Assembly: GCA_024683775.1 (NCBI GenBank)
Contig: GCA_024683775.1_4106.1
Direction: 5' to 3' (one strand)
Source of the DNA: a phage
Length of the DNA stretch: 64,000 nt
The notes beneath the pieces are model-generated. The model was not told the origin of the DNA. It saw only the letters and a list, made by a program, of their open reading frames with translations, and ran no database searches. Numbering within the stretch: the stretch's first letter is position 1; every line of letters begins with the position of its first letter. This document shows, piece by piece, positions 62,381 to 64,000 of this stretch. A program made the translations under genes and the position numbers.

Positions 62381-62409
62381 CTTGCACCGTACTGATAAAA
62401 GCGTATAAT
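62381..62409 (+). promoter_or_regulatory. module-specific promoter CTTGCA-N17-TATAAT followed by leader hairpin
   Basis: same promoter box recurs at 62841 and 63518; hairpin GCGGGAA-CAC-TTCCCGC at 62424..62440. Confidence 0.55.
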
Positions 62410-62464
62410 GTTTTACATCGAGAGCGGGAACACTTCCCGCTACACATTACGAGAGATTAAAACG

Positions 62465-62827
62465 ATGGCGACTCAAATCAATAAAATTATTGCTAACCTG
62501 GTTAACTTCCGCGACGAGATGAAAGATCTTCCGGCGGCAACGGTTAAAACTCACATTGACGCATACCGCGAACTGATTAAAATGCTGCCGCTTAAGCGTG
62601 AACAATACGCCGCTACCGTGATGCTTGATGCGATGATCCATAAGATGATCTCAAATGATTTGACGATGGTTTATCAGTATATGGGTGAAAATTTCGCGGT
62701 GTGCAGTAAGCCAGTACCAGGGATGGCAACAACTGAGGAATTGCACGGCTTAAACTTAAAACAAGATGCATGGGATAATATGCCTCGTTTCCTGGTATGG
62801 GCTGACAGTGGCAAAATTTACAAATAA
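62465..62827 (+). CDS. hypothetical protein (higher-GC module)
   Basis: start set at MATQINK (62465), because the track ORF start lies inside the -10 box. Confidence 0.5.
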   Translation: MATQINKIIANLVNFRDEMKDLPAATVKTHIDAYRELIKMLPLKREQYAATVMLDAMIHKMISNDLTMVYQYMGENFAVCSKPVPGMATTEELHGLNLKQDAWDNMPRFLVWADSGKIYK

Positions 62828-62840
62828 GTTTAATAAAGTA

Positions 62841-62869
62841 CTTGCAAACTATGTTTAATGGCGTATAAT
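62841..62869 (+). promoter_or_regulatory. module-specific promoter, copy 2
   Basis: GTACTTGCAAACTATGTTTAATGGCGTATAATG followed by hairpin GTGGGGAA-TAG-TTCCCCAC. Confidence 0.55.
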
Positions 62870-62919
62870 GTTTTACATCAGGTGGGGAATAGTTCCCCAC
62901 TATATAAGAGGATTAAAAA

Positions 62920-63159
62920 ATGGCTAAATCAAAAAAGTTCTTAGGTCACAAAAACAAAACTCATTGGAATGTAAGCCTTTGGATTAATAACGATGAGGGA
63001 TTGTATCGGTTGGCCCTGGATTTTATTAACGACAACACTAATCGCAATGATGCGGCCCGTCATATGATGTTATTTTTAGAACAGACTGGACAAGATAAAA
63101 CACCGGACGGATTCAAATATAGCACTACTGCGATCCGTGCGGCAATGGTTGGAATGTAA
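62920..63159 (+). CDS. hypothetical small protein (higher-GC module)
   Basis: 79-aa ORF with AAGAGG RBS. Confidence 0.5.
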   Translation: MAKSKKFLGHKNKTHWNVSLWINNDEGLYRLALDFINDNTNRNDAARHMMLFLEQTGQDKTPDGFKYSTTAIRAAMVGM

Positions 63160-63244
63160 TAGAATTTATTTAAAGTACTATCATTTTTTGCGATAGTACT
63201 TTATAATAGTGTTTTATTCATACACCAACGATAAGGGCAACAGC

Positions 63245-63511
63245 ATGAATATTAAGTATTTTGCGACGCGTGAACAAGCTCGGATCGCCGCACGCCAGGA
63301 CGGGGCAACGTTTAAAGATATGGGCGTACAATCGGAACGTGGTAAACGTTGGGCCATTGTAAAGCGTAGTACCGCCAGATCATTACAGTACTGGTTAGCG
63401 GCCTTAAAAAGTCCCGATAGTGTATCGCGTCGAGTGGTAGAAATAAAGCTCGACCGAAAGGGCAACCGCGTGACCGTGTACCGTACTAAAAAGATTGCAG
63501 TACTTGAATAA
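63245..63511 (+). CDS. hypothetical small basic protein (higher-GC module)
   Basis: start set at MNIKYF (63245); inverted repeat AGTACTATC...GATAGTACT and TATAAT upstream. Confidence 0.45.
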   Translation: MNIKYFATREQARIAARQDGATFKDMGVQSERGKRWAIVKRSTARSLQYWLAALKSPDSVSRRVVEIKLDRKGNRVTVYRTKKIAVLE

Positions 63512-63517
63512 AAAGTA

Positions 63518-63546
63518 CTTGCTAACTATGTTTAAAGGCGTATAAT
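63518..63546 (+). promoter_or_regulatory. module-specific promoter, copy 3
   Basis: GTACTTGCTAACTATGTTTAAAGGCGTATAATG followed by hairpin GCGGGAA-CTC-TTCCCGC. Confidence 0.55.
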
Positions 63547-63598
63547 GTTTTACATCGAGAGCGGGAACTCTTCCCGCCTATAACCTGGAGTAATAAAA

Positions 63599-63829
63599 AT
63601 GACTAATATGTATATGACTGAAGTTAAAACCGTAAAAGATACTACCACGAATAAAACTACTTACTTACAGCGGATCTGTGGTGTATGGCAACGTATCAGC
63701 AAATCAAAGTACTTTAAATTAACATCATATGCAAATCGTTCGGATTCATTCAGTACTGAAATAAAAGGTAATAAAGTACACCAATACGGCACTTATTATT
63801 ATTACAGCCTGGACGCGATTGCAGTATAA
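63599..63829 (+). CDS. hypothetical small protein (higher-GC module)
   Basis: 76-aa ORF with GGAG RBS. Confidence 0.5.
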   Translation: MTNMYMTEVKTVKDTTTNKTTYLQRICGVWQRISKSKYFKLTSYANRSDSFSTEIKGNKVHQYGTYYYYSLDAIAV

Positions 63830-63859
63830 GCAGTTTACAAATCTTTACAATTGCCGGTA

Positions 63860-63888
63860 TTGACTTATTTTGTCAGTACTGGCATAAT
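63860..63888 (+). promoter_or_regulatory. sigma70-like promoter TTGACT-N17-CATAAT
   Basis: hexamers read directly near the window end. Confidence 0.4.
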
Positions 63889-64000
63889 GTATTCATTGGC
63901 AGATAAGCCGTAGCCCATAGGGTGCGGGAGTGTATCTATAGAAAAATTAGTTTAGTATAGTTACAATTGTGCACCCGGTGGGTTAGCTGTTGTCATGGGG

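Follow-up and report, generated by a model that had tools for sequence, protein, structure and literature searches.

The pre-early genes of phage T5 are one of the known early modules that lie in a terminal repeat. Genes 37–60 of SPO1 (Stewart et al. 1998 via PMC6873191) and the 39-kb direct terminal repeat (DTR) of PA5oct (PMC7318152), a jumbo phage related to the one analysed here, likewise place many small genes in a long terminal repeat and express them early from host RNA polymerase promoters with strong ribosome sites, as the DTR described below would do; the DTR genes of PA5oct are described there as highly transcribed early (PMC7318152). In the portions of these accounts that were consulted, a conserved leader hairpin after each promoter, such as is found here, is not reported. 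Stem-loops and early promoters do occur together in the promoter-early stem-loops (PeSLs) of the T4-type phages RB49, phi1, PST and nt-1 (Arbiol et al. 2010, PMC2839356; Comeau et al. 2014, PMC4122927), of which five subclasses are described: the stem-loop may precede the promoter boxes, separate or overlap them, or stand directly ahead of the start site. The mRNA stabilisers of E. coli ompA and papA (Emory et al. 1992, listed in PMC3997798), like the elements described here, place a short, stable stem-loop close to the 5' end, with a ribosome site that stays accessible behind it; RNase E is reported to cut an RNA far more quickly when its 5' end is accessible than when it is base-paired (PMC3997798).

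The window studied here, a stretch of 64,000 nt, is from an Asteriusvirus, a 121Q/PBECO4-like jumbo coliphage of E. coli. Position 61000 of the window aligns with position 326 of the fEgEco12, CRJP21 and E9.1 records and with position 336 of vB_Ec-M-J, in which a DTR is annotated at 1–21525; the DTR of fEgEco12 measures 20,993 bp, as confirmed by PhageTerm and restriction digests (PMC13070987). Judged by these alignments, the genome has its physical left end at ~60675, and the four small genes (Table 1) are the opening genes of a ~21-kb DTR and no local island. The block is conserved at the same place, at the left end of every Asteriusvirus genome, with 84–98% identity. The DTR holds about 53 small genes, the gene content varies between relatives, and it is there that the cassettes described below are found; the genes immediately beyond it are tightly packed and have no such promoters. 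An earlier note on this DNA had described the four genes as a differently regulated module. The different regulation is supported, since most of the DTR genes that they open have a near-consensus sigma70 promoter of their own, whereas a module of four genes is not, the property being that of the whole DTR. Overall, the locus is probably best read as a series of early-gene cassettes, in each of which a host sigma70 promoter is followed by a stem-loop in the 5' leader.

Table 1. Positions of the features of the window that are discussed in the text.
Feature	Position	Strand	Description
Left end of ~21-kb DTR	60675..64000	+	~60675 corresponds to base 1 of records with determined physical termini
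Cassette 1	62372..62464	+	A-tract/GTAC; -35-like TTGCAC 62382-62387; 16-nt spacer; -10 TATAAT 62404-62409
Cassette 1, predicted transcript start	A62417	+	Predicted +1, ATCGAGAG...; from invariant A and T7 A1 geometry
Cassette 1, hairpin	62423-62441	+	AGCGGGAA-cac-TTCCCGCT; SD-like GAGAG 62451-62455
Gene 1	62465-62827	+	120 aa; phrog_7352; GC 0.433
Cassette 2	62832..62919	+	-35 TTGCAA 62842-62847; -10 TATAAT 62864-62869; predicted +1 A62877
Cassette 2, hairpin	62882-62900	+	GTGGGGAA-tag-TTCCCCAC; SD AGAGGA 62907-62912
Gene 2	62920-63159	+	79 aa; DUF7249 / phrog_871; GC 0.396
Promoter-like element before gene 3	63172..63207	+	11-bp inverted repeat AAAGTACTATC (63172-63182) / GATAGTACTTT (63192-63202)
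Gene 3	63245-63511	+	88 aa; phrog_8127; GC 0.479 (window maximum)
Cassette 3	63509..63598	+	-35 TTGCTA 63519-63524; -10 TATAAT 63541-63546; predicted +1 A63554
Cassette 3, hairpin	63561-63577	+	GCGGGAA-ctc-TTCCCGC; SD TGGAG 63586-63590
Gene 4	63599-63829	+	76 aa; phrog_5293; GC 0.338
Sigma70-like promoter	63860-63888	+	TTGACT-17-CATAAT
63860-63888 promoter and the conserved ~75-nt imperfect hairpin after it	63860..64000	+	Hairpin z -2.9; continues beyond window end
Cassette of like architecture	26833..26896	+	TTGACA-16-TATAAT followed by GTTTATCAA and the hairpin GGGGATGA-acttc-TCATCCCC; E=8e-4

The core GCGTATAATGTTTTACATC occurs exactly three times in 64 kb (62401, 62861 and 63538; 0.04 copies expected), and no further copy was found in the window with up to three mismatches allowed. 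The full unit forms a 69-nt direct-repeat family (62372–62440, 62832–62900 and 63509–63577) with 68–84% identity, and the hairpin motif GGGAA-N3-TTCCC is also present in the window only three times, at 62426, 62885 and 63563 (0.02 expected). The near-identical promoter element and hairpin that the earlier note had seen before three genes are therefore real, being three 69-nt units found at those sites only. As a promoter type they are not entirely distinct, because TATAAT with GTTT(T)A(C/T)ATC is also present at the window promoters 11508, 26833 and 61040. An AT-rich AATAAAGTAC or TAAAAAGTAC lies upstream of the -35 in the cassettes; cassette 1 has a poor -35 (3/6) but a perfect -10. RNA fold prediction gave -12.5 to -15.2 kcal/mol for the three window hairpins, with the Shine-Dalgarno (SD) sequence left unpaired.

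The unit, as an expression cassette of about 90 nt, is by no means restricted to this window. About 30 cassettes lie inside positions 1–21525 of vB_Ec-M-J, and none was found in 21526–30000. In the DTR the order of the parts is A-tract, -35, a spacer of 16 nt, the TATAAT box and, 8 nt on, the invariant A, ATCGAGAG, hairpin, free SD and ATG. A covariance model retrieved 60 copies in nine loci, 60 of 60 on the gene strand; its matches in the window are confined to 62404 (62404–62447, E=9e-7, cassette 1), 62864, 63541 and 26855, the last in the sole cassette of such architecture outside the DTR part of the window. According to BLAST, 9–12 copies are present per record in the 347–352-kb assemblies and 22–28 in the 366–384-kb records, among which vB_Ec-M-J and fEgEco12 are the two documented with both DTR copies. 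The higher copy number in the longer records indicates that nearly all cassettes lie in the DTR. The search for the element in other phages, as proposed in the earlier note, revealed matching architecture in the DTR of Klebsiella phage Muenster and in Phapecoctavirus. A scan of 30 kb of orthologous DTR against Rfam 15 yielded two sub-threshold, chance-level matches, neither of them at a cassette, and tRNA scans found none. In the literature on Asteriusvirus, rV5 and related phages, no account was found of these cassettes or of the AGTACT excess; the AGTACT motif within the cassette promoters could mean that an extra phage factor acts there.

With high confidence, each cassette would be a strong promoter for the host sigma70 RNA polymerase. 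Its parts would be an A-tract resembling a proximal UP subsite, a -35 of TTGCAA or TTGACA, a 16-nt spacer and a consensus TATAAT, followed by an AT-rich discriminator, and transcription would start from the invariant A that lies 8 nt past the -10; in the cassette alignment, TATAAT, A14 and T15 are invariant. When the cassette starts were compared with the start annotated for the T7 A1 promoter and its sequence (ATCGAGAGGG), the predicted purine-rich initial transcript, ATCGAGAG(G)G, was that of T7 A1. The two share a 7-nt discriminator followed by +1 A, identical first 8–10 transcribed bases (ATCGAGAG in the window cassettes, ATCGAGAGGG in several others of the DTR) and a similar upstream AAAAAG(A)GTATTGAC, whereas the T7 promoter has the weaker -10 of the two (GATACT) and lacks a 7–9-bp hairpin close by. 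The similarity may reflect convergence on good promoter escape and not homology. Pause-antitermination of the Q/qut type was considered and rejected, as the initial transcript contains no -10-like element. The DTR module would constitute an immediate-early gene set of the host-takeover type; with a DTR copy at both genome ends, one of them enters the cell first, whichever end leads. For Asteriusvirus, we infer the start site, the promoter strength and the timing alike from sequence.

The stems of the leader hairpins comprise 7–9 bp, mostly of G and C, and the hairpin is found at a fixed distance of 12–14 nt past the -10. It begins 5–7 nt past the predicted +1 and would occupy about +6 to +26 of the transcript. 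The hairpin scan, run with a loose -10 filter, also caught terminators, which were removed by hand curation. Covariation was assessed on the covariance-model alignment together with a direct tally of hairpins; cassette alignments made with MAFFT only were set aside on account of end gaps or shifted arms, and RNAalifold obtained five mis-registered pairs from them. In an alignment that is fitted to the model structure and in which many copies are paralogs, so that the counts are not independent events, 99.5% of the paired cells can pair, as compared with 84.6% in shuffles (0/500), compensatory changes affect five of the seven stem pairs, and the score for covariation reaches 0.423, while shuffles give 0.154 and slid controls no more than 0.178. 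Among 47 unique cassettes, 28 distinct stems were counted. Wobbles are asymmetric: 22 cells are G·U and two are non-standard, and the Asteriusvirus cassettes have 12 G·T and no A·C, the latter occurring only in three doubtful Phapecoctavirus alignments.

The covariation, the G·U-only wobbles and the presence of all copies on the gene strand indicate that the hairpin acts as RNA. It is accordingly most improbable that the inverted repeat acts as DNA, that is, as the operator of a dimeric repressor, as a cruciform or as the target of a recombinase that moves the cassettes. It is true that the near-perfect palindrome is situated just past the start site, a place suited to a roadblock repressor, that recombination joints map in or beside it, and that the authors of the PeSL work speculated on a DNA-binding recombination protein. 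Its half-sites, however, co-vary in a manner that keeps the pairing and not one sequence, and plain homology accounts for the joints, which are surrounded by 60–70 identical nt.

As an RNA element, the hairpin might be a terminator or attenuator that stops or lessens read-through out of the upstream gene and makes each small gene its own transcription unit. PeSL stem-loops of the GGGG...CCCC kind cut lacZ read-through like a strong terminator (PMC2839356), the record of vB_EcoM_ASO2A labels the homologous hairpin "terminator", and two promoterless DTR copies precede T-runs (L002 4895–4914 and 15793–15811). Such a function is nevertheless unlikely for the cassette hairpins, which have no U-tract (1–3 T in the next 8 nt; 2–3 of 8 in the window), are situated downstream of their own start site and would stop their own transcript. 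The terminator scan flags none of the three window hairpins, and the phage has a separate, T-flanked terminator type, AAAGGGTTGAC-ttcg-GTCAACCCTTTT, which is used four times inside the DTR and often elsewhere.

The earlier note had also suggested that the hairpin is a processing or regulator-binding site. In this case it would be recognised by a specific RNA-binding factor, such as a phage nuclease for the early-to-middle shut-off, a translational repressor (RegB/RegA-like) or an antiterminator loading on a boxB/put-like site. The hairpin position is constant, the G-rich 5' arm (in which GGAG is frequent) and the C-rich 3' arm are kept across about 60 copies, and the hairpin marks one temporal gene class, as a class-specific regulator would require. 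On the other hand, the loops (3–5 nt) vary in sequence with no conserved residue, the 28 stem variants arise by compensatory substitution, and the hairpin matches no Rfam family; the analogous hairpins of Phapecoctavirus and Alcyoneusvirus have quite different stems, so that each would need a factor of its own. The suggestion is thus possible in principle, yet rather doubtful, as variable loops and compensatory stems fit a generic structural role better.

It is quite possible, though we propose it with some reserve, that the hairpin at about +6 works in the mRNA in a stabilising and insulating manner. A stem-loop this close to the 5' end would slow 5'-end-dependent decay (RppH/RNase E), and it would insulate the A-rich, unstructured SD region from sequence upstream, so that many unrelated small ORFs would be expressed at a uniformly high level. 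Where transcription reads through from upstream, the hairpin could just as well form a cap at the 3' end of the preceding cistron. Bouvet and Belasco are reported to have found in 1992 that a 5' stem-loop gives the best protection when hardly any 5' nucleotides are left unpaired. If the +1 is the invariant A, 5–7 nt in front of the stem are predicted to remain single-stranded. This exceeds the optimum for stabilisers of the ompA type, and the stabilisation may therefore be weak. For the RppH of B. subtilis, 2–3 unpaired nucleotides suffice, and the E. coli enzyme is discussed without a stated figure (PMC3997798).

The GC content of 62381–63900 is 39.8%, compared with 35.1% for 1–60675 of the window. 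The earlier note had called all four genes GC-rich, which is correct for gene 1 (z +2.8, exceeding all 113 other genes), gene 2 (z +1.6, rank 9) and gene 3 (z +4.3, the highest of all) and incorrect for gene 4, which is average (z -0.3). Codon use is shifted as well: AGA and AGG account for one of 23 Arg codons in the four genes and for 213 of 600 in the rest of the window (p=0.001), and the use of GCG (p=0.0005) and CCG (p=0.01) also differs, the change being towards codons preferred by E. coli. The claim of a distinct composition, which had been made to depend on GC content and codon use, therefore stands, as both differ from the rest of the window. The shift spans all 53 DTR genes (GC 0.398 vs. 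0.329, p=1e-10). The raised GC would result from E. coli-like codons in early genes (few AGA, AGG and ATA, more CTG, CCG and GCG) and also from gene flow with more GC-rich coliphages, without being the mark of a foreign island. Phage tRNAs as an offset to the codon shift were considered and rejected, as the six tRNAs of fEgEco12 do not cover AGA, AGG and ATA; they are for Ser, Met, Asn and Thr only, which leaves the codon argument without a link to phage tRNAs.

That the four genes are a foreign island of recent acquisition, which alone would explain the GC content and the regulatory signals, is quite unlikely. Genes 1 and 2 do have homologs with 70–82% nucleotide identity in unrelated coliphage lineages, where the sampled loci have about 40% GC (for gene 1, at about 70%, in Phapecoctavirus, rV5-like and phi92-like coliphages), and the locus is mosaic among relatives. 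Nevertheless, the block is in place throughout Asteriusvirus, the compositional shift belongs to the entire DTR, gene 4 is of average GC, and gene 3, the most GC-rich of the four, is confined to RaK2-like jumbo phages, Klebsiella phages included (about 33% amino acid identity). A search for a host origin in 5,426 complete E. coli genomes gave no match. What remains of the horizontal acquisition considered in the earlier note is the exchange of single units of cassette and gene; the conserved block, the confinement of gene 3 and the result from the E. coli genomes speak against the acquisition of the whole.

Several such exchanges can be traced. Cassette 2 is chimeric between two cassettes that in vB_Ec-M-J and A4 stand on either side of an extra gene. 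In EJP2, the alleles of genes 2 and 3 are 49–54% identical between flanking genes at 90–97%. Gene 4 with its cassette shares 89–90% identity with an insert in SF1-1, a Shigella phage of the Phapecoctavirus-like kind; this 686-bp insertion consists of two Asteriusvirus-type units (about 90% nucleotide identity), and its joints lie in a duplicated 70-bp cassette. As about 60–70 nt are nearly identical between copies, the cassettes serve as linkers for homologous recombination. These comparisons show that units of cassette and gene are gained, lost, replaced and transferred among coliphages, across families too, much as PeSLs have been proposed to do in T4-type phages. More tentatively, the cassette may possibly be a common "universal adaptor" through which unrelated large coliphages exchange early genes, covering Asteriusvirus, other RaK2-like jumbo phages, Phapecoctavirus and phi92-like phages. 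If so, the 60–70 conserved nt would be under selection both for expression and as a handle for recombination, and co-infection would move small genes between families with promoter, leader and ribosome site attached, possibly via excised mini-circles. A dedicated factor might target the leader hairpin or the AGTACT motifs around these promoters in RaK2-like phages. The analogy with integron attC sites was dropped, the stems being just 7–9 bp and placed inside promoter cassettes.

Gene 3 has no cassette and is an exception to the reading of the cassette as standard. The inverted repeat of its promoter-like element overlaps TATAAT at 63202–63207, and the -35 is degenerate in the present genome; in relatives and in a paralog (L002 2861 and 15375), TTGCAC or TTGACA is found between the arms. 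No leader hairpin was found before gene 3 (fold z -0.1). A second place matching gene 3 is present elsewhere within each Asteriusvirus genome. Downstream of gene 4, the ~75-nt imperfect hairpin that follows the promoter at 63860 is a candidate structured early RNA; its arms hold GGGTGCGGGAGTGTATC (63918) and GCACCCGGTGGG (63975). Both recurrences noticed earlier were recovered: TAGGGTGCGGGAGTGTATC is repeated with 100% identity at 61928 and 63918, and GCACCCGGTGGG occurs at 61759–61776 and 63965–63982.

Searches of the four proteins against Pfam, PHROGs, NCBIfam, PADLOC and PDB returned only DUF7249 and four PHROGs without an assigned function, or chance matches; for the product of gene 1, there was no match in Pfam, NCBIfam, PADLOC or PDB. 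RaK2-group jumbo phages devote about 21 kb per genome end to some 50 such tiny genes, which probably decide the first minutes of infection. One standardised cassette appears to drive the DTR genes and to double as a seam for gene swaps, unrelated families included, so that the cassette alone offers a handle on early, host-takeover and anti-defence candidates. It is also a compact natural expression part, with a putative strong promoter, a T7-A1-like start, a leader hairpin and an SD, and it makes testable whether a 5'-leader hairpin with 5–7 free nucleotides protects phage early mRNA in E. coli.

Among the described systems, PeSLs resemble the cassettes in being a repeated intergenic unit of about 100 nt, in which an AT-rich stretch and a sigma70-consensus early promoter are combined with a stem-loop of the GGGG...CCCC kind, an SD and a small ORFan's ATG. 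As with PeSLs, the units form clusters in plastic regions, with the crossovers of indels and replacements inside the unit, and the present genome also has composites in which a -35 TTGAC lies inside a terminator stem. Unlike in PeSLs, the stem-loop is 12–14 nt downstream of the -10 and, given the predicted start, within the transcript; a U-tract is missing, and the phage's own terminators are of another kind. PeSLs belong to internal hyperplastic regions of T4-type phages, whereas the cassettes are located in the terminal repeat of a RaK2-like jumbo phage, and in the portal tree RaK2-like phages are only distant relatives of T4 (PMC5259590). The exchange across phage families seen here is a further difference. 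The idea of the PeSL as a "mobile regulatory cassette" now reaches beyond the T4-type phages.

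The 19-mer GCGTATAATGTTTTACATC occurs exactly three times in the 64-kb window (62401, 62861 and 63538; 0.04 expected), with no additional matches even when three mismatches are allowed, and GGGAA-N3-TTCCC is found in the window at three sites only (62426, 62885 and 63563). The repeat finder reported one 69-nt repeat family at 62372, 62832 and 63509. The repeated promoter element and hairpins described in an earlier note are thus present where it placed them and nowhere else in the window. As RNA, each of the three leaders is predicted to form one hairpin (-12.5 to -15.2 kcal/mol) that leaves the Shine-Dalgarno (SD) sequence and the start codon unpaired. 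The four downstream ORFs (genes 1–4) encode proteins of 120, 79, 88 and 76 aa. Gene 3 has no such promoter-hairpin-SD cassette; an 11-bp inverted repeat (AAAGTACTATC/GATAGTACTTT) flanks the TATAAT ahead of it, and its leader is predicted to be unstructured.

The GC content of the region is 39.8%, compared with 35.1% for the part of the window outside the direct terminal repeat (DTR, ~21 kb). When ranked against 113 other ORFs (mean 0.348, sd 0.031), genes 1 (0.433) and 3 (0.479) exceed all of them, gene 2 (0.396) is ninth, and gene 4 (0.338) is average; three of the four genes thought to be GC-rich are therefore so. AGA and AGG make up 1 of 23 arginine codons in the four genes and 213 of 600 elsewhere (p = 0.001), and differences were also observed for GCG (p = 0.0005), CCG (p = 0.01) and CTG (p = 0.03). 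As both GC content and codon use differ, the region is distinguishable from the rest of the window, as had been proposed.

Coordinates of the features in the window and in L002, the vB_Ec-M-J sequence with the orthologous DTR
Feature	Coordinates	Strand	Context
Gene 1	62465-62827	+	cassette 1 (62372-62464)
Gene 2	62920-63159	+	cassette 2 (62832-62919)
Gene 3	63245-63511	+	
Gene 4	63599-63829	+	cassette 3 (63509-63598)
Three tandem 53-bp units	62201-62359		genome-end non-coding DNA
8-nt-periodic GGCTAGAC/GGATGGCT-type repeats	61453-61580		genome-end non-coding DNA
Divergent sigma70-like promoters	e.g. 61040	+	within 60373-62380
Divergent sigma70-like promoters	e.g. 62048, 61707	-	within 60373-62380
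Sigma70-like promoter	63860-63888	+	upstream of ~75-nt imperfect hairpin
Terminator copies AAAGGGTTGAC-ttcg-GTCAACCCTTTT	17244-17267, 20837-20862, 21618-21639, 23695-20, 24376-24403, 28999-29028, 29585-29608		window
Terminator copies AAAGGGTTGAC-ttcg-GTCAACCCTTTT	10353, 14011, 17286, 20042		L002

Of the 166 phage records matched by the last 3 kb of the window, the best (94–98% identity) are Asteriusvirus jumbo E. coli myoviruses, including 121Q, PBECO4, slurp01, fEgEco12 and vB_Ec-M-J. In several Asteriusvirus records, window position 61000 corresponds to record position 326–336, which places base 1 of those genomes at about 60675. Bases 1–21525 of vB_Ec-M-J are annotated as 'Direct Terminal Repeats', and for fEgEco12, PhageTerm and restriction digests confirmed both the physical ends and a direct terminal repeat of 20,993 bp (PMC13070987). 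Thus, 62381–63900 holds the first four genes of the DTR, downstream of a non-coding, repeat-rich genome end of ~1.7 kb. The ~2 kb around the physical genome end (60373–62380) is packed with repeats and numerous CAGTACTG sites, has no credible ORF, and could carry packaging, terminus-recognition or replication signals. On both sides, the DTR is flanked (window 55575–60372, +; L002 21624–29657) by tightly packed or overlapping ORFs of 59–77 aa that have no individual promoters, a GC content of 0.33 and codon use unlike that of the DTR genes. Further away, the minus strand at 32962–55470 carries an array of ~19 presumably paralogous ORFs of similar size (most 357–449 aa, two shorter, 97 and 264 aa), with an unusually high second-position GC (0.40–0.48) and a GCCAGTAC...GTACTGGC hairpin plus T-run after many of them.

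The three cassettes belong to a family spread over the DTR. With up to three mismatches, motif TATAATGTTTTACAT has 32 copies in the first 30 kb of vB_Ec-M-J, every one before 20,650 and about 30 in promoter context. The 110 nt upstream of each annotated gene of this phage, read in turn, reveal a regular grammar: an A-tract, AGTACTTGCAA or TTGACA followed by N8-CAGTACTG, and TATAAT in the promoter part, then GTTTTACATC(G/A)AG and, in the leader part, a hairpin with G-rich and C-rich arms, an SD within an A-rich spacer, and ATG. The DTR genes are separated by ~85-nt spacers that hold the cassette, while the genes just past the DTR overlap or abut, with no cassette there. A covariance model built on ten copies and searched in the window and eight related loci (E ≤ 0.005) found 60 copies, all 60 on the gene strand; within the window, only the three reported sites and 26855 were returned. 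BLAST with one cassette matched 9–12 places per record in 347–352-kb assemblies, in which the DTR is presumably collapsed, and 22–28 in 366–384-kb records, two of which (vB_Ec-M-J and fEgEco12) have both repeat copies documented, as expected if essentially all cassettes sit in the DTR. The GC content of the DTR genes (n = 53) averages 0.398, as against 0.329 in the 33 genes that follow (Mann-Whitney p = 1e-10). Codon shares in these two sets are, respectively, 9% and 65% for AGA plus AGG among Arg codons, 9% and 36% for ATA among Ile codons, and 27% and 8% for CTG among Leu codons. The shifted composition attributed to a four-gene module is real and its different regulation is supported, but the unit is the whole DTR, with 53 genes and ~30 cassettes.

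Three cassette promoters of L002, all outside the window (3715–3812, 14169–14260 and 6724–6800), have no gene; each leads instead into a structured stretch of ~80 nt, in which the hairpin is enlarged, ahead of a second promoter, and they are possibly small RNAs or decayed cassettes. The annotated start codon of EcMJ_009 of vB_Ec-M-J (L002 5251) falls within the leader hairpin (ATGG loop), and the real start looks like the ATG 28 nt downstream, which has a proper SD.

The cassettes score as sigma70-type promoters (TTGCAA or TTGCTA, 16-nt spacer, TATAAT), with a weaker -35, TTGCAC, in cassette 1. In 26 aligned copies, the -10 hexamer and an A-T dinucleotide 8–9 nt past it are invariant. In the T7 record, the start of the host-RNAP promoter A1 is annotated at the A of ...GATACTTACAGCC-A-TCGAGAGGGACAC; A1 and the cassettes alike have a 7-nt discriminator followed by A, which in the cassettes is succeeded by TCGAGAG(C/G)GG. 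Based on this geometry, the cassette +1 is probably A62417, A62877 and A63554. The upstream AAAAAGTA(C)TTG resembles AAAAAGAGTATTGAC of T7 A1 and matches the proximal UP-element subsite consensus. The start region TATAAT-GTTTAT(A/C)TCAA is common to sigma70-like promoters elsewhere in the window (11508, 26833, 61040), so the DTR cassettes represent a sub-type, and not a promoter type of their own, as the earlier note had it. For early expression of the DTR genes, the evidence is indirect. In the related jumbo phage PA5oct, high early transcription from TTGAC/TATAATA promoters is described for many of the 105 DTR genes (PMC7318152), and a terminal-repeat host-takeover module of many small, strongly expressed early genes is known from SPO1 (PMC6873191). 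With a DTR copy at both genome ends, one would lead the way into the cell irrespective of the end injected.

The palindrome AGTACT occurs 218 times in the window (e.g. 139, 11522, 26847, 41011, 55533), ~10 times the expectation from base composition, is densest at 55500–64000, and is among the three most enriched hexamers, alongside CAGTAC and GTACTG; CAGTACTG was observed 48 times versus ~1 expected. The excess of AGTACT persists in coding sequence (~3 per kb, all frames) as it does in spacers (6.8 per kb). It frames promoters (AGTAC-TTGCAA; TTGACA-N8-CAGTACTG-TATAAT) here and in Klebsiella phage Muenster, and such framing is absent from Phapecoctavirus cassettes. A literature search returned nothing on AGTACT excess.

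The leader hairpin starts 12–14 nt past the -10, at about +6 relative to the predicted +1, and has loops of 3 to 5 nt without any conserved base. Tallied directly, 47 unique cassettes drawn from eight loci have 28 different stems, in which 352 pairs are Watson-Crick, 13 are G·T and 3 are A·C, the last only in Phapecoctavirus loci, where an alternative register is possible. In the model-based alignment of 60 copies, which is fitted to the structure and includes many paralogs, standard pairs fill 99.5% of cells versus 84.6% after shuffling (reached by 0 of 500 shuffles), both-sided changes occur at 5 of 7 pairs (45 cells), the covariation score is 0.423 versus 0.154 in shuffles and at most 0.178 with slid partners, and 22 G·U cells are seen versus 2 non-standard. 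The inverted repeat may be a DNA operator; the presence of G·U without A·C and the invariable orientation, however, argue for selection on the sense-strand RNA, and not on a duplex palindrome. A class-specific RNA-binding factor may recognize the hairpin, but a structural job fits a generic, sequence-tolerant stem best. It is also possible that the hairpin is an attenuator like that of the PeSL (promoter-early stem-loop), a repeated regulatory unit of T4-type phages, although its sequence argues against a terminator role. The cassette hairpins have no T-run and differ from the canonical terminator of the phage, a T-flanked UUCG-loop hairpin that recurs across the window and has four copies in the DTR. 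The canonical terminator is A/T-flanked and apparently bidirectional; with TTGAC within the stem and, in several copies, TATAAT 16–18 nt downstream, it forms a classic PeSL-style composite terminator/promoter with the -35 inside the stem.

Judged from sequence and comparison, as all functional readings of the cassettes are, each cassette would suffice by itself for early expression, combining a strong host promoter, an escape-favouring initial transcript, a 5'-proximal stem-loop and an open ribosome site. The stem-loop could insulate the ribosome site against variable context, cap upstream cistrons in read-through transcripts, or hinder 5'-end-dependent decay. RNase E cuts RNAs whose 5' end is accessible far more rapidly than RNAs whose 5' end is base-paired (PMC3997798, a review that also lists the stem-loop papers on ompA and papA). 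The main weakness of the decay-protection reading is the 5–7 nt left unpaired at the predicted 5' end.

The locus is mosaic across five Asteriusvirus genomes. In vB_Ec-M-J and A4, an additional 77-aa gene separates genes 1 and 2 and has a cassette on each side, the two being direct repeats. At this place the window has one cassette, cassette 2, whose left part equals that of one of the two and whose right part equals that of the other; the switch falls within the shared hairpin region. In EJP2, alleles of genes 2 and 3 (54% and 49% identical) are flanked by genes 1 and 4 at 90–97%. Genes 1 and 2 have homologs of 70–82% nucleotide identity in Phapecoctavirus, rV5-like and phi92-like coliphages, and the Phapecoctavirus genes have the same promoter-hairpin-SD architecture with different stems, e.g. 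GGGCGGCA-atgg-TGCCGCTC. Compared with its relative Mt1B1_P17, the Phapecoctavirus-like Shigella phage SF1-1 carries a 686-bp insertion of two Asteriusvirus-type units, one 89–90% identical to cassette 3 and gene 4 (63534–63832), the other 90% identical to a promoter and acetyltransferase gene 9 kb deeper in the Asteriusvirus DTR, whereas ancestral shared genes are only ~70–80% identical; a duplicated 70-bp cassette stretch borders the insertion on both sides. Klebsiella phage Muenster (Alcyoneusvirus) has the same cassette architecture within its PhageTerm-predicted terminal repeat. Several ~140–146-kb 'Campylobacter phage' records (MG065645, MG065689, MG065690 and others) contain gene 1 and the cassette at 71–90% identity; they resemble phi92- or rV5-type coliphages and may have been assigned the wrong host.

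No part of the region matched any of 5,426 complete E. coli genomes. The four proteins belong to families of unknown function that are confined to phages (DUF7249; phrog_7352, 871, 8127, 5293), with no relatives in NCBIfam, PADLOC or PDB. Gene 3, the most GC-rich, is found in RaK2-like jumbo phages only, including Klebsiella phages at ~33% identity, so its composition is no sign of recent import. The horizontal acquisition suggested in the earlier note holds as an exchange of cassette-gene units among coliphages; the note's observation was confirmed and its interpretation right in part. The raised GC content is better explained by host-like codon choice in early genes together with gene flow with the sampled coliphage loci of ~40% GC. 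Phage tRNAs do not explain it or the codon shift.

The two other recurring motifs are likewise real (repeat families D13 and D18). The first site (61759, 61928) lies within the non-coding genome end, where the GGGTGCGGGAG copy sits inside a weak hairpin followed by a T-run. The motifs at 63918 and 63975 are the two arms of one conserved imperfect hairpin of ~75 nt (fold z = -2.9), the pairs of which are retained in five genomes that vary too little at this place to reveal covariation. At 63860–64000 (L002 3476–3665), a second hairpin with a T-run follows and no convincing ORF is found, making the stretch a candidate early non-coding RNA of ~150 nt that extends past the window end. Partial copies follow terminators elsewhere in the DTR (L002 10391, 17324, 20073–20221).

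The closest described system is the PeSL, in which an SD and a small ORFan go together with a sigma70 early promoter, an AT-rich segment and a stem-loop of the GGGG...CCCC kind; PeSLs cluster in plastic regions and serve as crossover points of modular shuffling (PMC2839356, PMC4122927). On sequence grounds, the DTR cassettes appear to share most of these defining features. For RaK2-like, rV5-like or Phapecoctavirus phages, no PeSL or leader-hairpin description was found in the literature: RpoD-like promoters with UP elements are all that the CBB paper predicts, and the rV5 paper gives 33 sigma70 promoters without leader structure. As far as could be searched, mobile early-promoter cassettes of this regular leader-hairpin version are previously undescribed, and the terminal repeat of these jumbo phages is organised around them. 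In PeSLs, the stem-loop precedes the promoter boxes, separates them, overlaps them or immediately precedes the transcription start site, and is described as a terminator, whereas here it lies in the transcribed leader, as judged from the predicted +1, and its sequence speaks against termination.
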